NCBI GenBank assembly: GCA_044868695.1
Contig: JBIOWP010000101.1
Span: forward strand, 1-20,477
DNA from: a bacterium
GTDB taxonomy: Bacteria; Sysuimicrobiota; Sysuimicrobiia; Sysuimicrobiales; Kaftiobacteriaceae
Direction of reading: 5' to 3'
DNA length: 20,477 nucleotides
The translations under genes were made by a program, and so were the position numbers. The notes beneath the pieces were generated by a model. It searched no databases. It was not told where the DNA came from and worked only from the letters and a program-made list of their open reading frames with translations. Shown here in pieces: positions 2,206-17,620 of the stretch (within the stretch, counting starts at the first letter, position 1; every line of letters starts with the position of its first letter).

Positions 2206-2784
2206 TTAAGACCTCTTGCCCTCTACAATGGCCAGGAACTCCGCTCGTGTGCGAGGGTCGTCTCTGAAGATCCCGCGCGTCGCCGACGTCACGACCTTGC
2301 TTCCTGGTTTCTTAATTCCTCTAATCGTCATACACAAATGCTCGGCTTCAATCACAACACCGGCACCTGCAGCACCCAAGCCGCCCTGGCACAGGAAGTC
2401 TGCAATCTGTGAAGTGAGCCGTTCCTGCACTTGCGGTCTCCGCGCAAGGATTTCTACCAGACGTGCCACTTTGCTGATCCCGAGAATACGGCCCTGTGGA
2501 ATGTACCCAACATGTGCGATGCCGATGAAGGGCAGCAGATGATGTTCACAGAAGCTGCTGAAGGGAATGTCCTTGACGACGACCATCTCGTGATGATCTT
2601 CGTCGTCGAACCCTACTTCTAGCAACTCGCGTGGGTCCTCCGTCAGACCTGAAAACAGCTCCTCGTACATGTCGGCGATCCGCCGCGGAGTATCGATGAG
2701 CCCCTCGCGTTTTCCGTTTTCGCCGATGGCCTCGATAATATCTTTGACCGCCTGCTCGATCGCGGACTTATCCAACGATGTCAC
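2206..2784 (-). CDS. folE: GTP cyclohydrolase I
   Basis: [44 protein letters not shown]. Start is GTG 2784 or TTG 2775 (GGAGGTG RBS favours 2775). Confidence 0.97.
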
Positions 2785-3983
2785 CTCCGAAGTTGAGCGG
2801 GCGCGGGCTGCCGGTAGCCGCAGAAAAACTCCATCATCCGCGCCACGCGGACCATCGCCTGCACGTCGTGCACCCGCAGCATGTTGGCGCCCTGCGCGAT
2901 GGCGAACGCCACGGCCGCGGCGGTTCCTTCCAGCAGTTCGTCGGGATGCAGCCGCAAGAGATCCCGGATGTAGTCTTTCCGTGATGTGGCCACGAAAATT
3001 GGGAAGCCCAGGCTGCGCAGCTCCGGCAGCCGGCGCATCAATTCGATGTCGCGCGACGGGTGTTTGCCGAAGTTGAGCCCCGGATCGACGAGGATGCGCT
3101 CCCGCGCGATCCCCGCTGCCATCAGGTCCTCGGTCCGCCGCTTCAAAAAAGCAGCTACCCAGTCCATCATCGAGGGAAGGTCCAGGTCGTCGTAGTGATG
3201 CTTGGGACGGCCGTGAAGGTGCATGATGACGATACCTGCCTGACTCTGGGCGACCACCCGGACCATCTCCGGGCTGGAGACCCCGCTGATGTCGTTCACC
3301 AGTACGGCGCCTGCCTCGATCGCGGCCTTGGCGACCTCGGGCTTGTACGTGTCGACTGCCACCGGCCGGTCGCAGCGGCGGGCCAACTCGGCGATAAGAG
3401 GCGTCACCCGCCGGATCTCCTCTTGAACCGGCACCGGATCGCCCTCCTGAGCCGTTTCTCCCCCGACTTCAATCACATCGACGCCTTCCTGCACCATCTC
3501 CTCCGCACGCGCCAGCGCCGCTTCTATGCCGTAGTGACGCCCGCGATCGTAAAATGAGTCCGGCGTGTTGTTTAGGATTCCGGCGATGTAGACGCGCGAC
3601 GCAAAGTCGAAGCGGTGGCGCCCGAGGGTCACCGCGGGCGGCGGGCTCGTCACGGCCCCCAGCGTGGACCGGAGGGCATCGGCAACCGCTGGATCTGCCT
3701 TGCCGAGGAACTGCTCAAACTGAGCCACACTTCCCCCCAGCACTGCCTGCAGGCGGTCCTGCAGCGGCGGACCCGCCGGCGCCGGCCCCGAGGCCGCGCC
3801 GCCGTAGCGCACAAAATCCGCCACTGCGCGGCGCAACGGTCCTTCCGGCGCAATCAGCCGGATCCGCGCGAATGACGTGCCGGCCGGGGTCTCGCGATCC
3901 GGTAGCGGCGTCAAGGCCCACGCCCAGTACAACCCGTTCGGTTCAGTCACGGTATCACTCAACGGGAGATGTGGAACATCCAT
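2781..3983 (-). CDS. folP: Dihydropteroate synthase-like protein with long N-terminal extension
   Basis: [42 protein letters not shown]. Start most likely ATG 3983, because the ORF-track start at 4190 overlaps the MFS gene. Confidence 0.85.
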
Positions 3984-4002
3984 TCCAGTATACCGAAAGA
4001 CG

Positions 4003-5286
4003 TTATTCGGCGGGTTCGGGGATGGCGCGCAGCGCCCGCACGGGTGAGAACGCGACCCACAGGAAAGCCAGCGCGCCTCCAGCGACGGAAATGGCGATGG
4101 CCGGGCGGAGCCCCAGCGCCTCGCCGAGCACACCGCCGGCCAGCCCGCCCAGCGGCATCGTGCCCCACACGAGAAACCGCATTGTGGCATTCATGCGGCC
4201 CTGCAATCGGTCCGGTGTAATCGCCTGCCGCAGGCTGACCTGGTTGATGTTGTACACCGGATTCGCGAAGCTTGTCAGCAGCCCCGCGAGGACCAGCACG
4301 AGAAACGCGGTCGCGCGTGTCGCGAACGGGATCGAAATCAACCCGAGCCCATCAATCAGGGTCGCCGCGAGGATCGTGTGGCCGACCCCGAAGCGGGCAG
4401 CCAGCCGGCCGGCCGTGAGCGCACCCAGGAGCCCGGAGACGTTGCTCAGGCTGAAGATGACGCCGATTTGCGCCGGGCCTAACCCGAGTTCACGCGTCGC
4501 GAACAGAATATACAGTGTGGACAGCGCGGAAGTGAAGAAGTTGAACGTCCCGGTGCACCCGGCAATAGAGCGCAGGAGCCTATTGCCGAAGACGACGCCC
4601 AGCCCTTCCCGCACCTCCGCGAGCATGGCGCCGCGCGCGGAGCGCGCGACGACCGGTTCCCGCCCTCTGATCAGCGCGATGAGCCCGCCGGAGACGACAA
4701 ACGACGCCGCGTCCAGCACGATCGCCAGCGGGGCGCTGAGCAGTTGAATCACCACGCCAGCGATCCCGGGCCCGGCGAGGTTGCCCAGCGACCGGGTCGC
4801 CTCGAGTTTGCTGTTGCCTTCCACCAGCTGCCGGCGGTTCACCAGCGCGGGGAGATAGGCCTGATACGCGACGTCAAAGAACACGGTCAGAATGCCCACG
4901 AACAGCCCAACGGCATACAGGTGCGGCATGCTCAGGCCCGCGGTGAGGGCGGCGAACGGAATAGTCAGCAGTACCGCGGCGCGTCCGAGATCCCCGGTAA
5001 TGAGGATCGGCCGCCGGGGCAACCGGTCCACCCAGACGCCGGCGAACAGGCCGATCAACAGAAAGGGCGCCCGCTCCACCGCCGTGAGGATCCCCATCTG
5101 CCCGGCCGTCGCATGGAGCGTCAGCGCGGCGATCAGCGGAATGGCCAGACCCGTGAACTGATCGCCGAAGACCGAGATGGTCTGCGCCGTCCACAGCTTC
5201 ATGAAGTCCGCGTGGCGCCACAGCGGAGCGCTGTCGCGCGGTAGCGCAGTCGCAGCAGAGCGCAGGGTGTCTTCGCGCTGGTCCAT
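4003..5286 (-). CDS. MFS transporter (DHA3/macrolide-efflux-like)
   Basis: FMKLWTAQTISVFGD, motif A GVWVDRLPRRPILI, SLRQAITPDRLQGRMNA, about 12 TMs; ATG 5286 directly after the ABC stop. Confidence 0.92.
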   Translation of the reverse strand: MDQREDTLRSAATALPRDSAPLWRHADFMKLWTAQTISVFGDQFTGLAIPLIAALTLHATAGQMGILTAVERAPFLLIGLFAGVWVDRLPRRPILITGDLGRAAVLLTIPFAALTAGLSMPHLYAVGLFVGILTVFFDVAYQAYLPALVNRRQLVEGNSKLEATRSLGNLAGPGIAGVVIQLLSAPLAIVLDAASFVVSGGLIALIRGREPVVARSARGAMLAEVREGLGVVFGNRLLRSIAGCTGTFNFFTSALSTLYILFATRELGLGPAQIGVIFSLSNVSGLLGALTAGRLAARFGVGHTILAATLIDGLGLISIPFATRATAFLVLVLAGLLTSFANPVYNINQVSLRQAITPDRLQGRMNATMRFLVWGTMPLGGLAGGVLGEALGLRPAIAISVAGGALAFLWVAFSPVRALRAIPEPAE

Positions 5287-5287
5287 G

Positions 5288-6280
5288 TCAGTCGCGCAGC
5301 CGCCGCCCCGTGAGGGCAATGAAGACATCTTCGAGCGACGCCTCAAACAACTGCACGTGGCGCACGCGCAGTCCCGCGTCGCTGATCGCCTGCACCGCCT
5401 TCGGCATCGCGGCGTTCACCTCGGCCAGTTCCACGGTCACGTCCCACGCGCCGTCCATCGGGTGCTGGTCCACAGTTACCTGCGTCACGCCGGAGAGCGG
5501 CCGCAACGCCGGAGCGATGCGATCGGCGGCGCCTTCGACCTCCATGCGCAGGATCATGCCGCGCTGGTGCGCCCGCTTCAATGCCTGCGGGGAGTCCAGC
5601 GCGATGACGCGCCCATGATCGATGATGCCGACCCGTTCGCAGAGCTGATCGGCCTCTTCCATGTGGTGCGTCGTGAGGATGATCGTCTTCCCGCCTTCGC
5701 GATGGAGCCGGCGGATCAGCTCGCGGATATTGCGAGCCCCCTGAGGGTCGAGTCCCGTGGTCGGCTCGTCAAGCATCAGGACCGGGGGATCGTGCAGGAT
5801 GGCCTTGATCAGCGCCAGACGCTGTCGCATCCCGGTGCTGTACCGCTCGACCAGATCGTCGGCGCGGCCGGTGAGCTCGACCGCATCGAGCAGCGCCGCA
5901 ATGCGGGGACCCGCAACGTCCCTGGGGACCTGGTACAATTCCGCAAAGTATTGGAGGTTCTCCCGACCGGTGAGCTTCCAATACACGGATCGCTCGCCGG
6001 CCAGCAGGACGCCGATGTGGCGCCGGACTTCCTCCGGGTTGCGGATGATGTCGTACCCCCACACCCACGCCGTCCCCTCCGTGGGGAGGAGCAGCGTGCA
6101 CAAGAGGCGGATGGTCGTCGTCTTCCCGGCGCCGTTGGGTCCGAGGAGCCCAAAGAGCTCACCACGCGCGATCCGCAGCTCGACGCCGTCCACCGCGGTG
6201 ATGCCGGCTGAGGCAGGGGGGTACGCGGCAAACCGCTTGGTCAGCCGCTCGAGCCGGACGGCGTGGTCGGGCAGGGTCAC
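5288..6280 (-). CDS. ABC transporter ATP-binding protein (DrrA/NodI-like)
   Basis: Walker A GPNGAGKTT, signature YSTGMRQR, Walker B MLDEPT, H-loop TTHH, C-terminal SLEDVFIALTG. Confidence 0.95.
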   Translation of the reverse strand: MTLPDHAVRLERLTKRFAAYPPASAGITAVDGVELRIARGELFGLLGPNGAGKTTTIRLLCTLLLPTEGTAWVWGYDIIRNPEEVRRHIGVLLAGERSVYWKLTGRENLQYFAELYQVPRDVAGPRIAALLDAVELTGRADDLVERYSTGMRQRLALIKAILHDPPVLMLDEPTTGLDPQGARNIRELIRRLHREGGKTIILTTHHMEEADQLCERVGIIDHGRVIALDSPQALKRAHQRGMILRMEVEGAADRIAPALRPLSGVTQVTVDQHPMDGAWDVTVELAEVNAAMPKAVQAISDAGLRVRHVQLFEASLEDVFIALTGRRLRD

Positions 6281-6621
6281 TCGACGATGACCTCCACTGA
6301 CGCGCCGCTTGGCTCGCGAATGTCCACCAGAGGCCCGGACGTTTCACCTTCCTGCACAGCCCGGAGTAGCTCGTCGAGGTTGACCCCGCGCTCCAGAAGC
6401 TTTTCGCGCGCGCCGGCGGGGAGCAGTCCCAACATGGACCCTGCGATGGCCACGGGAATGGAAAACTGCATCTTCTGTCCGTTGGGGCTCTGGATGCGGA
6501 CGCGCAGGTGCCGCGCGGGGCCGCGCGGGGCGCGGTCGAGCTCCTCGAGCAGCCTGGCGCCTTCCTCCGGCGTGACCTTGCCGTCTTTCACCATTTCGAG
6601 GATCCGCAGCCGCTCATTCAT
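6277..6621 (-). CDS. Small SHOCT-like (YvlB/LiaX N-terminal-like) domain protein
   Basis: MNERLRILEMVKDGKVTPEEGARLLEEL; 4-bp overlaps with both neighbours. Confidence 0.8.
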   Translation of the reverse strand: MNERLRILEMVKDGKVTPEEGARLLEELDRAPRGPARHLRVRIQSPNGQKMQFSIPVAIAGSMLGLLPAGAREKLLERGVNLDELLRAVQEGETSGPLVDIREPSGASVEVIVE

Positions 6622-7808
6622 CGGGCGCCCCGGATGCTGATATCGCCGCTCGTCGTACGCAGTGTCATGGCCGCTCCCGGGCCGCCGACCAAGCCGCGCA
6701 GGCTTCGCCGGTCACCGGTGCGGTTGACTAGCGGAAGCGCACAGTCGATCTCCCCGGACTGCACGGCCGCGTCAATTTCGCCGCGGGTTCCCTCCGGCAG
6801 GATCAGGCCGACATCGCCGCTCAACGTCTCCAGTGAGACGGCGCCGTCCGGCGCCAGCGCCGCCAGGCCGGCTTCGATGTCGCCGGACAGGGTCCGGGCG
6901 CGCAGGGTTCTGGCGCGAACGCCGCGGAACATGAGATCGCCATTCTTCCCCTCGACGGACACGTCGCCGCCGGCCTCGTCGATCGCGACATCGCCGCTGA
7001 TAACGTCCAGCGAGACTCCGCCGGCCCGCTCGACCCTCACGTCGCCGCTGAGGACCCGGCCCGTCACCGTCCCCTCCACGGCGCGCACGTCAACGTCACC
7101 GCTGCGAACGTCCAGGGAGATGCTGTTCGCAACCGCCTGCAGCGACATGTCGCCCCGCATGAGGTCCACGTCGAGTGGTCCGGACAGTCCGGAAGCCTGG
7201 ACGTCCCCTTTCGCCAGCTGCAGCGAGACGGCGACGCCCGCCGGCACGGCCAGCTCGAGATCCACGCGCACGCGCCGCTGTTCCACCTGCGGCACGTCCA
7301 CGAGGACGTCGGCACCGCTGCGGCGCGGGGCCACCATCAACGCCTGGGCCAGCTGCTGCGCGTCGTCCGCCGTCGCTGCCCAGACTCGGCGGAGCGCCCG
7401 CAGACGGAGGTGGCCGTCAGGGGATCCTTTGATCTGAACGTCGCCCCACACGTTGCGCACGGTGAGGCGCTCCCCTGCGGCCATCGGTTCTTCCGCCGAC
7501 GTTTCGGCCTGCCCTTCACCCAGACCCCACAGCGCCTGCAGCGCGCCGAGGAAGCCTGGGCGCAGGATGTCCTTGGTCCGCTTCAGCTCCCGCATGACCT
7601 CTTTCGGGATGGACTCGACCAGCTCGTTAAAGACGCCGCGCAGCTCCGCCCGGAGCTCGGGCGTCTCGGGGAGATCGCCAGGCGCGGGCGAGGGGGACCG
7701 TTCGGCGTCGCTCTCTTCTTCCAGCGCATGCAGCAACGCGTCGGCCTCTTCAACCGAGACCTTGCCTTCCTTCAACATCCTAAGGATCATCTCGCGCTCT
7801 TCGTCCAT
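6618..7808 (-). CDS. DUF4097 beta-strand repeat protein with N-terminal SHOCT-like domain (LiaX/YvlB-like)
   Basis: EREMILRMLKEGKVSVEEADALL, then repeated SGDV-type beta repeats ending TLRTTSGDISI; GGAGG RBS before ATG 7808. Confidence 0.88.
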   Translation of the reverse strand: MDEEREMILRMLKEGKVSVEEADALLHALEEESDAERSPSPAPGDLPETPELRAELRGVFNELVESIPKEVMRELKRTKDILRPGFLGALQALWGLGEGQAETSAEEPMAAGERLTVRNVWGDVQIKGSPDGHLRLRALRRVWAATADDAQQLAQALMVAPRRSGADVLVDVPQVEQRRVRVDLELAVPAGVAVSLQLAKGDVQASGLSGPLDVDLMRGDMSLQAVANSISLDVRSGDVDVRAVEGTVTGRVLSGDVRVERAGGVSLDVISGDVAIDEAGGDVSVEGKNGDLMFRGVRARTLRARTLSGDIEAGLAALAPDGAVSLETLSGDVGLILPEGTRGEIDAAVQSGEIDCALPLVNRTGDRRSLRGLVGGPGAAMTLRTTSGDISIRGAR

Positions 7809-7838
7809 ACCCGCCTCCAAGAGTGTCGGCCGATCTTG

Positions 7839-8219
7839 TCACGCCTTGGCCTCGCGCAGCAGCCGCAGCGCTTCCTCCGCGCTTATCGTTCCGGCATCCA
7901 GCGCGTCGAGCACTTCGCGCCGCCGCCGCGTGGTCTCCGGCTTCCGCTCGGGCTCGACCGCGTACCCGAGCGCAACGAGCAATCCGTCGAGGCGGTTGCG
8001 CACAGTGGGATACGAAAGACCTAGCTCGCGTTCTACTTCCTTGATGTTGCCGCGGGCCTTCAGGAACAGGTCCAGAAACGCAAGTTGCTCGGGATCCAGC
8101 CGGCTGAACTTCGCAGGTTCGAAGTGTCCTTCAACCGCCGTGCCGCAGTTCGTGCACTGCAGCCTGACCACCTCGAGGTCGTGACTACAGACCGGGCATT
8201 TCCCCGGTGCGTGTGGCAT
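7839..8219 (-). CDS. DUF2089-family protein (Zn-ribbon + HTH + SHOCT-like), putative regulator
   Basis: CPVC...CTNC, GNIKEVERELGLSYPTVRNRLD, EVLDALDAGTISAEEALRLL; GGAGG-rich RBS before ATG 8219. Confidence 0.9.
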   Translation of the reverse strand: MPHAPGKCPVCSHDLEVVRLQCTNCGTAVEGHFEPAKFSRLDPEQLAFLDLFLKARGNIKEVERELGLSYPTVRNRLDGLLVALGYAVEPERKPETTRRRREVLDALDAGTISAEEALRLLREAKA

Positions 8220-8403
8220 CAGGCGGGATCCTCCCTCCACTGCCGGATGCGGCCGAGGCCTGCTCAAGGGCGCGGGCGATCCTGCTCCAGATCGAGCTGC
8301 GCGGCGGCTCGGCCTTCCGAGCCAGCCTCATCTGCTCAGCCAGACGCAGCTGCTCCTGGATCCGCTCTTGCGCCAATCTCTCAAGGAACAGCTGGTTGTA
8401 CAT
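8185..8403 (-). CDS. Small hypothetical helical protein, first gene of the DUF2089 operon
   Basis: Strong RBS GAGGAGGAG before ATG 8403; MYNQLFLERLAQERIQEQLRLAEQMRLARK; overlaps the DUF2089 start by 35 nt. Confidence 0.55.
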   Translation of the reverse strand: MYNQLFLERLAQERIQEQLRLAEQMRLARKAEPPRSSIWSRIARALEQASAASGSGGRIPPDATRTGEMPGL

Positions 8404-8448
8404 CGCTCTCCTCCTCAATCCTCACATATAATCATCAGAGCATCATAA

Positions 8449-8477
8449 ACATTAATATATGACTTCCATTTTGTCAA
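8449..8477 (-). promoter_or_regulatory. Sigma70-type promoter of the DUF2089 operon
   Basis: TTGACA (8477-8472), 17 bp, TAATGT (8454-8449) in an AT-rich intergenic region. Confidence 0.65.
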
Positions 8478-8540
8478 TATGCAGCGCTAGATTAGTCGCA
8501 TATCGTACGTGTGTACGCATATATTGAGAGGGCATGGAAA

Positions 8541-9257
8541 TCACGAGGCGTGAAGGACAGCTGTATCGATTCCCTCGCTCTCCAGCAATCGACGCTTCAG
8601 TGACGTTCCGCCCCTGAGCGAGTAGCCGCCGAGGCCTCCGTCGCTGCGAACCACCCGATGGCAGGGAACGATCAGCGGCACAGGGTTCTTCGCGCATGCG
8701 TTGCCAACGGCCCGGACGGCCCCGGGGTGCCCGATCTCGCGGGCGATATCGCGATAGGTCCGGACCTGCCCTTTCGGGATCCTGCGGAGCTGCTCAAGGA
8801 CCATACGTTCAAACGGACCGACCATGGACAGGTCCACGGGCCCGGCGAATCCGCTCAACGATTCGAAAAACCGGCGCAGGCCCTGCCGCAGCGCCTGCGG
8901 CGGGTGCGCGTCTCGCACCACCGGGCGATGGTACTTCCGGTACAGCGATCGGGAGAACGTGTCGTCTCCCGGAGCCAGATCCACGGCGCTGACTCCGAGG
9001 TCCGTGTAGGCGACGTAGACAGTGCCCAGCGAGCTGGCAAACGACGTGTAGCGCAGCATCTCTTCTGCCCTCCCCGGCCGTTTGGCCGTGTGGTGTGCGT
9101 ACTGCAGCACGAACGACTCCAGATCGTCCTCCGCCAGCGGCGTCAGGGCCGCGGCCGGCTTGCCGCGCAACGTGATGATCACCGGCTCACCACCCATGGC
9201 ATGGCGCAGCAGTTCGTTGGTCTTGTTCTTCAGCTCCACCGTGTTGGCCACCCGCAT
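8541..9257 (-). CDS. ogt: Fusion: Phd/YefM antitoxin-type DNA-binding domain + methylated-DNA-protein-cysteine methyltransferase (Ogt/MGMT)
   Basis: N-terminal MRVANTVELKNKTNELLRHAMGGEPVIITLRGKPAAAL (Phd pattern); C-terminal IPKGQVRTYRDIA, RAVGNACAKNPVPLIVPCHRVV, LLESEG; GGAGG RBS at 9263-9267. Confidence 0.9.
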   Translation of the reverse strand: MRVANTVELKNKTNELLRHAMGGEPVIITLRGKPAAALTPLAEDDLESFVLQYAHHTAKRPGRAEEMLRYTSFASSLGTVYVAYTDLGVSAVDLAPGDDTFSRSLYRKYHRPVVRDAHPPQALRQGLRRFFESLSGFAGPVDLSMVGPFERMVLEQLRRIPKGQVRTYRDIAREIGHPGAVRAVGNACAKNPVPLIVPCHRVVRSDGGLGGYSLRGGTSLKRRLLESEGIDTAVLHAS

Positions 9258-9272
9258 CTCAGCCTCCAAATT

Positions 9273-9322
9273 ACATGGCTATTTTCATAGCTATGTTACT
9301 CCTGCAGGTCAGCGGCTGTCAA
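9273..9322 (-). promoter_or_regulatory. Promoter and tandem-palindrome operator of the Phd-Ogt gene
   Basis: TTGACA (9322-9317), 18 bp, TAACAT (9298-9293); palindromes CATAGCTATG (9286-9295) and CATGGCTATT (9274-9283). Confidence 0.7.
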
Positions 9323-9340
9323 TACCGAACGGGATATGGC

Positions 9341-11224
9341 CTAGCGGATCACCTCGTCCTTGTAGCGGACGTCCGGATGCTCGCGCAGGTAGTCGGACAC
9401 CTTTTGCGCCATCTTCGGCCCGACGATCTCGGCAATCTGGTCTAGCGTGGCCTGGCGTACGTGGCGCACCGACCCGAACCGGCGGATCAGATCGCGCTTG
9501 CGCTTCTCCCCGATCCCCTTGATCTCGTCCAGGACGGAGAATACGATCCGCCGCTCACGGAGCTTCTGATGGTAGGCGTTTGCGAACCGGTGGGCCTCGT
9601 CACGTACGCGCTGCAGCAGCCGCAGCGCATGGGAGTCGCGGGGCAGTGCAATAGGATCGGCGCTCTCCGGGGTGACGATAAGTTCCTGTTGTTTGGCCAG
9701 GCCGATGGCCGGAATCGTGACGTTGTATTCGAACAACACCTCCCGGGACGCGTTCAGCTGACCCCGGCCTCCGTCGATCAAGATGAGGTCAGGCATCACC
9801 GACCACTTGACAGGAACCGCCTCGTCCTTGTCGAGTTTCTCCTGCTCCTCCCGCGCCGTCGCGAACCGCCGGCGCAACATCTCCTGCAGGCTGGCATAAT
9901 CGTTGGGCCCATCCACCCACTTCATCTTGAAGCGGCGGTAGTCGCGTTTGTGCGGCAGGGCTCCCTCGAAAACGACGAGCGAGCCCACTGTTTCCCCGGC
10001 CTGGAAGTTGCTCACGTCGTAGGCTTCGATGCGAAACGGCACGTGCTCCAGGCGCAGGATCTCCTGCAGCTCTTTGATCCCGGCGCCGGCCGCGCCGGAG
10101 ACCCGGGCGCGCTCCTGTGTGAGGTACAGCGCGGCATTCTCCGCGGCCATGTCGACCAGGCGCCTACGCTCTCCGCGCTGGGGCACGATGACGTCGACCT
10201 TGCCGGCGCGCTTCTGCGCGAGCCACTCGGCGATCAGCGCCTCCTCCGCCACCGGCTCCTGCACGATGAGCTCGCGGGGCACGCTGGGAGCCTCCTGATA
10301 GTACTGCTTGAGGAACTCCCCAAGGGCTTCCCCGCGCGGCAGCCCGCGGGTCCCCTCGAGCATGAAATGCTCCTGACTCTGGAGCCGGCCCGCCCGGATG
10401 TAGAACATCTGCACGCAGGACATGTCGCCCGCCTGGGCCAGCGCGGCGATATCCCGGTCTTCCAGCCCGACGCTGGCGGTGCGCTGCCGTTCGTAGATGG
10501 CCTCCATCGCCTGGATCTGGTCCCGCAACTGCGCCGCGCGCTCGAACTGCAGGGCCTCCGCGGCCTGCGCCATCTCCGCGCGCAACTCATCCAGCAACGA
10601 CTCCTGCTTTCCCTCGAGGAACATCGCCGCCTGGCGGACCTGCTCCCCATACTGCTCGGCGGAGGCCCCCCAGGCCACGCACGGCGCGGTGCACTGGCCG
10701 ATGTAATAGTCCAGGCACGGACGCGGCAGGTCCCGGGTGATCTCGATGTTGCACGACCGGAGCTTGAAGAGCTTGCGGATCGTGCGGATGGTCCGGGTCA
10801 CGAGCTTCGGCTCGTGGTACGGATAGGGCCCAAAGTACCGGGCCCCATCGCGGAGCACACGCCGGGTCATGAGGATCTTGGGGTACGGTTCGTTGGTGAG
10901 CTTCACGAACGGGAAGGCCTTGTCGTCGGCCATGCGGACGTTGTAGGGGGGCCGGTGCTGTTTGATGAGGTTGGTTTCCAGGATGAGCGACTCCACCTCG
11001 TTCTCGCAGGCGATGACCTCCACGTCGGCGATCTTTGACATGAGGTGGCGGATCCGCGGGCTCTCGAGATGCCCGCTGTCCTGAAAGTACTGCCGGACCC
11101 GGTTGCGCAGCGAGGCCGCCTTCCCGACATAGATCACCCTGCCGGAGGCGTCCTTCATGAGATAGACGCCCGGCCGGACGGGCATGAGCTTCAACTTCTC
11201 TTCAACGTTCTGGAGGTCGGGCAT
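9341..11224 (-). CDS. uvrC: Excinuclease ABC subunit C
   Basis: GIY-YIG PGVYLMK...IYVGKA, four-Cys cluster, UVR domain FERAAQLRDQI, IEAYDVSN, LILIDGGRGQ, RDEAHRFA, HhH. Confidence 0.98.
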   Translation of the reverse strand: MPDLQNVEEKLKLMPVRPGVYLMKDASGRVIYVGKAASLRNRVRQYFQDSGHLESPRIRHLMSKIADVEVIACENEVESLILETNLIKQHRPPYNVRMADDKAFPFVKLTNEPYPKILMTRRVLRDGARYFGPYPYHEPKLVTRTIRTIRKLFKLRSCNIEITRDLPRPCLDYYIGQCTAPCVAWGASAEQYGEQVRQAAMFLEGKQESLLDELRAEMAQAAEALQFERAAQLRDQIQAMEAIYERQRTASVGLEDRDIAALAQAGDMSCVQMFYIRAGRLQSQEHFMLEGTRGLPRGEALGEFLKQYYQEAPSVPRELIVQEPVAEEALIAEWLAQKRAGKVDVIVPQRGERRRLVDMAAENAALYLTQERARVSGAAGAGIKELQEILRLEHVPFRIEAYDVSNFQAGETVGSLVVFEGALPHKRDYRRFKMKWVDGPNDYASLQEMLRRRFATAREEQEKLDKDEAVPVKWSVMPDLILIDGGRGQLNASREVLFEYNVTIPAIGLAKQQELIVTPESADPIALPRDSHALRLLQRVRDEAHRFANAYHQKLRERRIVFSVLDEIKGIGEKRKRDLIRRFGSVRHVRQATLDQIAEIVGPKMAQKVSDYLREHPDVRYKDEVIR

Positions 11225-11230
11225 GTCGGG

Positions 11231-12382
11231 CTATAGGGTCCGCAAGAACTCTCCCGTGCGCTGCAGTCCCTCCTCGAGCCGGTGCATCTCGCCACCATAC
11301 CCGATCCGGAGGTATCCGTCCATCTTGAAATGATCCCCGGGTACCACGAGGACCTCTCGCTCCTTGCGCAGGCGCGTGGCGAGCTCGGTGGAGTTGACCG
11401 CGGGCCGGTAGCGTACGAACGCGATCGCACCGGCCTGCGGGGGGACCCAACTGACGACGCCGTCCATCGCATCGACCCACTTCGTGACCACGGCCAGGTT
11501 CTCGTTTAGGATCAGCCGGGTGCGGGCCGCCAGACGCTGGGAGGCGCGAGGCCCGAGGGCGACGCGGGCCAGGTGGTCGCTGAGGAGGCTGGGAGCGATG
11601 GTCGTGTAGTCGTGGTACCCCCATAGGACTTCAACCATCTCGTGGGGCGCAAGAATCCATCCCACCCGGAGCCCCGCCAGGCCGTAGGCCTTGGAGAGCC
11701 CGCCCACGACGATTGCCCGCGGGTACCGCCCCCAGAACGAATGCGTCGGGTGCCCGTCCAGTTCCGCGCCGCGATAGACTTCATCGGCTACGACCCACGC
11801 ATTCACCCGCGCGGCCGCCGCGCACACGGCGTTCATCGCCTCCACGGACAGCACGGCACCGGTGGGGTTGTTGGGATTGCACACAAAGATCGCGCGGGTC
11901 TTCGGCGTGACGAGCCGCTCCAGTTCGTCCAGGTCGGGCGCCCACTGCGCAGGCTCACGCAGCCCCGTACCAGGGCCTTCCAGGCCCGGTACAGGGCGCA
12001 GCCACCACCCTTTGACGTCCACGCCCCAGCCCGGCGCCAGTTGCGGAATCTGCATGTAGTTGGGCAGCATGACCACCGCCTCGTCGCCGCGCTCGGCCAG
12101 GGCCCAGGTGATGAGAAAGTTGGCCTCCGCCGCGCCCGTCGTCACGAGCACGTGCTCGGGCCCGGCGGCATGGTACAGTCCGGCGACCGCCGTGCGCAGC
12201 TCCTCGCTGCCGTTGGTGGACCCGTAGCCGATCTGTTCGCGTGAGAGCACTTCGCGGATCCAGGAGTGGTCGACCAGCGCGGCCAGCGTAATGGGGTACA
12301 CGCCGCTGTCGGCGAGGTTGAACGGCACGGCGTTCTCCCACGTCGATTGATACCGCTCCATCTCGAAGCGCTCAATCTTCAT
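11231..12382 (-). CDS. PLP-dependent aminotransferase class I/II
   Basis: CNPNNPTG, ADEVY, GLSKAYGLAGLRVGW; start MKIERFEMER at 12382. Confidence 0.93.
   Translation of the reverse strand: MKIERFEMERYQSTWENAVPFNLADSGVYPITLAALVDHSWIREVLSREQIGYGSTNGSEELRTAVAGLYHAAGPEHVLVTTGAAEANFLITWALAERGDEAVVMLPNYMQIPQLAPGWGVDVKGWWLRPVPGLEGPGTGLREPAQWAPDLDELERLVTPKTRAIFVCNPNNPTGAVLSVEAMNAVCAAAARVNAWVVADEVYRGAELDGHPTHSFWGRYPRAIVVGGLSKAYGLAGLRVGWILAPHEMVEVLWGYHDYTTIAPSLLSDHLARVALGPRASQRLAARTRLILNENLAVVTKWVDAMDGVVSWVPPQAGAIAFVRYRPAVNSTELATRLRKEREVLVVPGDHFKMDGYLRIGYGGEMHRLEEGLQRTGEFLRTL
11958..12003. repeat. In-frame 39-bp palindromic insertion with 7-bp direct repeat CGCAGCC
   Basis: CGCAGCC at 11958-11964 and 11997-12003; hairpin spanning 11962-11997. 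Confidence 0.65.
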
Positions 12383-12451
12383 GGGAGCCCCCTTGAACCG
12401 CGAAATCAGGGATCCGGGATCAGGGATCCGAAACGCATGCCCCAAACGCAG

Positions 12452-15403
<2,952 letters not shown>

Positions 15404-15424
15404 CCCCCTGCTCCCGTTCACACA

Positions 15425-15494
15425 GTCATTGCGAGGCCGCAGGCCGAAGCAATCCCCTCCTGACAGGAGATCGCTTCGCTACGCTCGCGATGAC
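15425..15494. repeat. REP/RPE-like palindromic element
   Basis: GTCATTGCGAG...GAAGCAATCCC...GAGATCGCTTC...CTCGCGATGAC nested inverted repeats filling the uvrB-uvrA gap. Confidence 0.8.
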
Positions 15495-15496
15495 GG

Positions 15497-17620
<2,124 letters not shown>

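Follow-up and report, generated by a model that had tools for sequence, protein, structure and literature searches.

Transcriptional control specific for alkylation damage in bacteria is described, as far as the cited passages of two reviews go, as activation of the Ada type through a phosphotriester zinc switch (PMC10779285, PMC4437013). Ada is an activator that is switched by methylation of Cys38 in its phosphotriester-repairing zinc domain and drives alkA, alkB and aidB (PMC10779285, PMC4437013). Ogt, an O6-alkylguanine-DNA alkyltransferase (AGT), is given as not inducible by alkylation, and the AGT fusions named in the same 2023 review, AGT-EndoV and C. elegans AGT-2, carry nuclease or histone-like domains and no repressor in the part cited (PMC10779285). 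In Actinobacteria, the ECF122 and ECF203 sigma factors have an O6-methylguanine methyltransferase at position +1, a link that is one of gene context only in the sections cited (PMC7826278, PMC8999054). On the side of the antitoxins, the YefM operator consists of paired palindromes 12 bp apart and the Phd operator of two 8-bp palindromes 13 bp apart (PMC1802561). The disordered tail of free Phd hinders a second dimer (negative cooperativity) until Doc folds the tail (PMC10135005).

The window analyzed here, a stretch of 20,477 nucleotides from a genome of the Sysuimicrobiota (G000; 2.6 Mb, 95% complete), contains a gene that joins a Phd/YefM-type N-terminus to an Ogt. This fusion is real and conserved, and it is apparently undescribed so far. 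The features discussed below are the following.

8541..9257, minus strand: Phd/YefM-Ogt fusion gene, 238 aa (single open reading frame, profile matches, 65 full-length clusters)
9132..9257, minus strand: predicted DNA-binding and dimerisation domain of the Phd/YefM fold, residues 1-42 (TIGR01552, structure model, dN/dS)
9096..9131, minus strand: third helix, residues 43-54, where similarity to the donor antitoxin ends
9057..9095, minus strand: variable linker, predicted to be flexible, residues 55-67 (low pLDDT, dN/dS, length spread)
8568..9056, minus strand: two-domain O6-alkylguanine-DNA alkyltransferase, residues 68-230, with Y168, R182 (RAVG), N191, C199, H200 and E228
8661..8663, minus strand: codon of the acceptor Cys199 (PCHRV), placed by sequence position
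9263..9267, minus strand: Shine-Dalgarno sequence GGAGG, read from the sequence
9275..9294, no strand assigned: predicted operator, two 8-bp palindromes, ATAGCTAT (9287-9294) and ATAGCCAT (9275-9282)
9293..9298, minus strand: -10 hexamer TAACAT, sharing two bases with operator box 1
9317..9322, minus strand: -35 hexamer TTGACA (promoter scan)
9341..11224, minus strand: uvrC, upstream neighbour of the fusion (Pfam scan), separated from it by 83 nt

The initial annotation had read this gene as an uninterrupted frame of 238 amino acids with a Phd/YefM N-terminus and a complete Ogt, and all three readings held. The frame translates without any break. Residues 8-43 score 37.1 bits with TIGR01552 (phd_fam) in the NCBIfam scan, for a cut-off of 20.8, and RAVG begins at R182. 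The Pfam profiles that the annotation had named gave a mixed outcome: DNA_binding_1 matched at 116 bits and PhdYeFM_antitox at 28.9 bits (E 1e-6), slightly below its cut-off of 29.8, and Methyltransf_1N had no match at E<=0.01. TIGR00589 matched at 101 bits (cut-off 46.4). Names given to the fusion proteins in the databases cover one half only, either Phd or Ogt.

Residues 1-56 were modelled at pLDDT 89, and all the structures listed as matches belong to the Phd/YefM family. The closest is the N-domain of VapB46 (6jqy; rmsd 1.2 A over 43 columns), and P1 Phd (4zm0/4zm2) and YefM also match. Profile and model both point to the beta-alpha-alpha-beta-beta DNA-binding fold of Phd/YefM antitoxins, and the predicted recognition-helix residues L9, K10, N11 and N14 are the same in all 65 fusions. 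The third helix is donor-like in family f1, to which the window belongs, and degenerate in several fusions of family f5. Similarity to the donors stops near residue 54; the C-terminal region with which these antitoxins neutralise their toxins is absent, about 30 further donor residues being missing.

The model of the Ogt part has the two-domain AGT fold. It matches E. coli C-Ada (1sfe) over 169 columns with a target TM of 0.83 and an E of 4e-13 (34% identity over the aligned part), and other AGT structures match as well. Y168, R182, N191, P198-R201 and E228 are invariant in 65 of 65 fusion clusters, and the sequence holds the full Ogt/AGT set of PCHR acceptor, arginine finger, Tyr, Asn hinge and Glu-His dyad; we take Y168 and N191 to be the catalytic Tyr and the Asn hinge. 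The fusion is the only PCHR alkyltransferase detected in this 95%-complete genome. An alkyltransferase-like protein in which PWQRV replaces PWHRV is encoded elsewhere in it (G000:C34:374-1555, minus strand). Between the two parts, residues 55-64 of the linker have a pLDDT <50, and linker lengths spread over 18 residues among the fusions. This variation in length and sequence argues against tight allostery.

A search with residues 1-110 returned 79 proteins, 65 of them full-length fusions with 60-88% identity and an invariant PCHR; the other 14 comprise fragments, one deletion form and seven antitoxins that stand alone. Across the class (94 genomes), long frames with a strong Phd match were present in 19 of the 22 of family f1, including that of the window, and in 26 of the 34 of family f5 (45/56 together); the fusion was found in none of the 38 genomes of the five other families. 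Intact fusions that read through to PCHR number 18 in f1 and 25 in f5, or 43 separate genomes. The remaining cases are one frameshifted copy (G020), one cut by a contig end (G006), one unmatched (G015) and one without the Phd strands (G010), and G077 enters the f5 count by its Phd match, outside the read-through count. Two unpublished genomes, G033 and G077, each raise the f5 count by one, and the conclusions stand without them; G033 (locus L019) also contributed to the operator matrix, to the counts over 36 loci and to a single dN/dS pair. The initial annotation had allowed that relatives with two separate genes might expose an artefact. The 65 full-length clusters, with the 43 intact fusions in separate genomes, rule out an error of assembly or sequencing. 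Over 15 disjoint pairs, dN/dS was 0.084 for Phd residues 2-42, 0.078 for the catalytic domain and 0.49 for the linker.

Of the 28 fusion records from GTDB, those with informative names read CSP1-3, ANGP1, Armatimonadota/Armatimonadetes, Ca. Geohabitans and Ca. Fervidifonticultor. The last two are placed in the Sysuimicrobiota (PMC11604079), so that the carriers likely belong to this phylum. Independently formed Phd-Ogt fusions were absent from the best 150 of 44,747 matches, where divergent ones could be missed; 81 of these 150 were domain-scanned (fragment P0041 was left out) and Phd appeared only in P0080 and in fragment P0206. There were likewise none in the 80 loci kept of 176 from GTDB and none in a weak search of longer proteins. 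Among the matches listed, the open-access literature (subscription papers and bioRxiv supplements lie outside it) contained neither a Phd-Ogt fusion nor a repressor-type alkylation response, in line with the remark in the initial annotation that no characterised example was known. The fusion is unnamed in the cited passages of the alkylation-repair reviews (PMC10779285, PMC4437013) and unmentioned in the main text of papers on the Sysuimicrobiota (including PMC11604079), as far as the portions cited go.

The promoter and operator at 9275-9322 had gone unmentioned in the initial annotation. The only promoter-like site within 8000-9500 is the sigma70-like TTGACA-18-TAACAT (0.4 expected), and a TTGAC-like element lies 26-30 nt ahead of the operator in 23 of 35 loci. 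The predicted operator of the window, ATAGCTAT-GAAA-ATAGCCAT, has box centres 12 bp apart, overlaps the -10 hexamer and follows the consensus ATRGCYAT-N4-ATRGCYAT. Scored with a matrix built without the window's own site, it reached 33.2 bits; the runner-up anywhere in the 2.6-Mb genome had 12.8 bits, and a simulated genome contained zero sites at >=14 bits. In leave-one-out scoring, a site of at least 14 bits stood upstream of 27 of the 29 fusion loci with upstream DNA (L027 is not counted, its contig having none), and outside the operator position the best score in fusion loci was <=2.9 bits. Fusion loci outside the training set of the matrix all scored 19-34 bits (14/14). Scores were <=1.8 bits at 17 of 17 plain ogt or ada loci and <=8.4 bits at 14 further ogt loci. 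The boxes keep their 12-bp period while the flanks diverge and the proteins are only about 50% identical. At several f5 loci, the 3' end of uvrC harbours the promoter and the TAG of box 1 serves as the stop codon of uvrC. Some fusion loci have a third box.

This arrangement, a predicted paired palindromic operator over the gene's own promoter, agrees with those of YefM and Phd. Its conservation makes it very likely that the fusion protein represses its own gene. A 209-aa form without the Phd strands (G010) keeps a site of 20.5 bits, not far below the 23.3 bits of an intact congener. The frameshifted copy in G020, broken after codon 33 and possibly an assembly error, has a perfect operator. No TTGAC-like element was found upstream of this 209-aa form without Phd beta-strands (L024 in G010; P0079). 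A comparison in which the fusions seemed to have stronger operators than the donors (perfect in 14/35 vs 4/52) was discarded as biased, the consensus having been drawn from the fusions.

Exact paired sites in 61 genomes numbered 15, of which 14 precede fusions and one precedes a phd-parE operon; G000 has a single site, and no exact paired site was found in the 61 genomes beyond these two kinds of location. There is therefore no sign of a regulon, and control would be limited at most to the fusion and the genes abutting it downstream. Extra sites with one mismatch, at a distance from fusions and phd operons, were considered as a regulon and rejected, being mostly of the ATGGCCAT type and about as frequent as in a reversed-pattern control. 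The initial annotation had proposed a repressor-type adaptive response: the conserved operator on the gene's own promoter speaks for the repressor, and the reach of the response, with no regulon, would be narrower than that of Ada. Elsewhere in G000 (C142, about 320-870), a RelE/ParE-like toxin gene precedes a Phd-like antitoxin gene, and the pair is preceded by ATGGCTAT-AAT-ATAGCCAT, boxes of the fusion type at an 11-bp period. Cross-talk between the two sets of boxes, or specificity based on spacing, is possible.

The fusion N-terminus is 66-68% identical over 56 residues to two donor antitoxins. Of its stand-alone relatives, the closest are antitoxins of mostly 80-88 aa, spread over many phyla (52 of the 80 loci kept, out of 176 found). 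An abutting frame was present in 44 of the 52, ParE/RelE-like by eye in 43, and the three that were scanned all match PF05016. A fusion-type site of at least 14 bits occurs at 41 of the 52 loci; 35 fit the 12-bp period and none fits 10, 11, 13 or 14. The site is common to donors and fusions, hence promoter, operator and about 54 codons appear to have been transferred together, without toxin or tail. The idea of a domesticated antitoxin, raised by the initial annotation, thus gains a donor: the fusion operator is that of donor Phd-ParE operons, and the N-terminus is donor-like. These operons are scattered over many phyla, whereas the fusion is vertical in two families and fixed beside uvrC. A foreign base composition was sought in the Phd part and none was seen (GC 0.65).

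In the Phd tree, fused and stand-alone domains separate with weak support (0.46). In the Ogt tree, all 35 fused Ogt domains group together (weakly on their own, support 0.51; 0.95 with P0081), and the sister of this clade (0.99) consists of Ogts with N-terminal extensions, some with zf-HC2 and often with a C-terminal Ada-zinc domain; plain Ogt and Ada of the order are distant. The IQ-TREE topology, without supports, agrees with FastTree. The gene would have arisen once, by replacement of the N-terminal part of an Ogt of the ECF-sigma-linked type with the promoter, operator and first 54 or so codons of a phd-parE operon. The outgroup proteins are the best matches to the fusion profile, a biased sampling that makes the ECF-linked ancestry a lead. 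One extended Ogt with a C-terminal Ada-zinc domain directly follows an ECF sigma gene (L131, G031:C176), and N-terminally extended Ogts, some with zf-HC2, that end in Ada-zinc occur at L188 (G074) and L189 (G073), as P0082, P0088 and P0120, and in others; many end in AA, AV or SA. They are candidate anti-sigma alkylation sensors. The resemblance to the ECF122/ECF203 systems is that the fused Ogt branches with such extended proteins, one of which follows an ECF sigma gene; the fusion has neither a sigma partner nor an Ada-zinc domain, and in the window uvrC, not an ECF sigma gene, lies directly upstream.

The likeness to E. coli Ada lies in a suicide O6-meG transferase joined to a sequence-specific DNA-binding domain, predicted in the fusion, and in action on its own promoter. 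In contrast to Ada, the fusion protein has no Pfam match to the Ada zinc domain or the AraC helix-turn-helix, PCHR is its sole acceptor motif, no regulon was found, and its site overlaps the -10/start region, as for a repressor; NF011964 matched the Ogt part only, at 97 bits for a cut-off of 345. Strong Ada_Zn matches (96-111 bits) were found in 0 of 45 fusion genomes vs 24 of 49 others, in line with the proposed independence from Ada, an exclusion that rests on a few related families whose members are not independent. Three of the 24 carriers were read and are Ada-type. Two of the 45 fusion genomes (G073, G074) also hold an Ogt with a C-terminal Ada-zinc domain, and the 12 genomes of family f4 have neither fusion nor Ada. 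The catalytic machinery is that of constitutive Ogt, AGT-EndoV and C. elegans AGT-2. With YefM-YoeB, Phd-Doc and the donor Phd-ParE/RelE operons the fusion shares the N-terminal fold, the paired-palindrome operator and its position at the promoter; it differs in having a folded enzyme instead of the toxin-neutralising tail and no toxin gene.

We propose that the fusion is a self-repressing alkyltransferase in which alkylation of Cys199 would derepress the gene and refill the spent enzyme, an explanation to which we give, as a whole, a probability of about 0.6. Two fusion dimers would, in all likelihood, occupy both boxes and shut off the promoter in the manner of YefM and Phd. Methyl transfer may then destabilise the Ogt domain: alkylation lowers the melting points of AGTs by 17-35 degrees (PMC10779285, PMC5751216), and alkylated AGT is degraded in eukaryotes and archaea, which is "yet to be established" elsewhere according to the passage cited (PMC10779285). 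The tethered repressor could then be degraded. Alternatively, unfolded Ogt tails could stop two dimers from sharing the operator, like the tail of toxin-free Phd. The folded Ogt, in place of that tail, could serve as a co-repressor within the protein itself, and the promoter would be freed when it unfolds or is proteolysed. Repression by spent enzyme would block its own resupply, which favours release upon alkylation, and by analogy with other AGTs and with Phd such release through unfolding or turnover is probable. The variable linker, the lack of a regulon, unlike Ada, and the G010 site that outlasts the loss of Phd count against it. ClpX, ClpP and Lon motifs are present. The proteins end in AS in 33 of 65 clusters, for a background of 3.6% A[ASV], all within family f1, whose members are kin and not independent; as a degron, this ending is a lead only.

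Autorepression might instead serve homeostasis only, the Phd part capping or evening out the level of a repair protein that binds DNA non-specifically, while the alkylated form goes on repressing or disappears too slowly for real induction. The operator and conservation data fit this equally, the flexible, variable linker and the single site without regulon suit it, and excess unmethylated Ada likewise damps its own promoter (PMC4437013). A spent enzyme that kept repressing would, on the other hand, deprive a damaged cell of its only alkyltransferase; alkylation makes AGTs unfold or aggregate (PMC5751216), and the distribution is nearly complementary to that of Ada. We regard homeostasis alone as unlikely.

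The repressor could also be drawn off its operator by binding of the Ogt to damaged or bulk DNA, with no need for catalysis. Alkyltransferase repair is fast and consumes the lesion, so any such sequestration would be brief, and we hold this titration to be improbable, even if the flexible tether is consistent with it, the AGT helix-turn-helix binds DNA non-specifically and Cys-mutated AGT binds O6-meG stably (PMC10779285, PMC5751216).

A ParE-type toxin acting in trans as co-repressor, or proteolysis of the antitoxin part under stress, might control ogt instead. The adjacent cognate gene of a type II toxin-antitoxin system is missing, as the initial annotation had stated: with two donor toxins as queries, no ParE-type match was found in 36 fusion loci, that of the window included, over 304-1921 nt of downstream flank. 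Helix 43-54 is donor-like in f1, and cognate phd-parE operons with the same type of site coexist with the fusion in G079, G080 and G082 (L184, L183 and L185) and, with a frameshifted toxin, in G025 (L031), all of one genus; G000 has its second RelE-like/Phd pair with similar boxes. Against this, the fusion lacks the last 30 or so donor residues, much of f5 has a degenerate helix 3, and a donor-toxin query of the 61 genomes gave, in those with the fusion, only matches of 27-35%, the G025 remnant aside. A role for a toxin or stress protease is very improbable. In that genus, the recognition region of the fusions is altered (STAELK) and their second box is weaker. That Phd merely dimerises the Ogt into a two-headed DNA-scanning enzyme, with the operator a leftover of the captured promoter, is barely credible given boxes held at a 12-bp period amid diverging flanks, even inside uvrC, and invariant L9, K10, N11 and N14, for all that AGTs bind DNA cooperatively (PMC5751216) and the G010 site persists after Phd loss.

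There is about an even chance that the self-repressing alkyltransferase constitutes a second, independently evolved alkylation response, with a repressor-enzyme of the "use it and lose it" kind: the acceptor Cys would itself be the sensor, and a captured Phd operator would be switched by the folded enzyme, which takes the place of the toxin. If so, two families of an uncultured phylum use a repressor-enzyme instead of Ada, an ogt-ABC ATPase unit is under its control in many carriers, and the related ECF-sigma-linked Ogts point to further alkylation sensors. The logic, if the switch is confirmed, would be opposite to that of Ada, a repressor being released via the O6-meG acceptor cysteine. The locus would be a clear example of how the promoter, operator and DNA-binding domain of a toxin-antitoxin system are domesticated as a set, and would offer a transcriptional read-out for whether bacteria clear alkylated AGT. 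The 238-aa protein with its defined 20-bp site suggests a one-gene alkylation biosensor.

The fusion had been placed just downstream of uvrB-uvrA-uvrC. It does adjoin uvrC, and in 21 of 36 loci the end of uvrC is no more than 250 nt from the start of the fusion, but a class I/II PLP-dependent aminotransferase (11231-12445, minus strand; best NCBIfam match PRK07324, below cut-off) separates uvrA from uvrC, with a gap of 6 nt on either side. The gene 3' of the fusion encodes a DrrA-like ABC ATPase in 17 of the 36 loci and DUF2089 in 11, and is unassigned in 8. The ATPase gene starts within 100 nt of the fusion stop in 16 of 36, and the two may share a transcript. In 11 loci, the window included, a DUF2089 cluster stands between fusion and ATPase; it is missing there in many relatives. 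In the window, 4003-8418 (minus strand) holds a short open reading frame, a DUF2089 regulator, SHOCT-DUF4097 and SHOCT proteins (Lia-like) and the DrrA-like ABC ATPase, after which comes an MFS transporter in place of an ABC permease. An 86-aa open reading frame at 15418-15678 (minus strand), which overlaps the end of uvrB and the start of uvrA in a different frame, is probably no gene. The dihydropteroate synthase frame at 2781-4190 (minus strand) has about 200 residues ahead of its pterin-binding domain.
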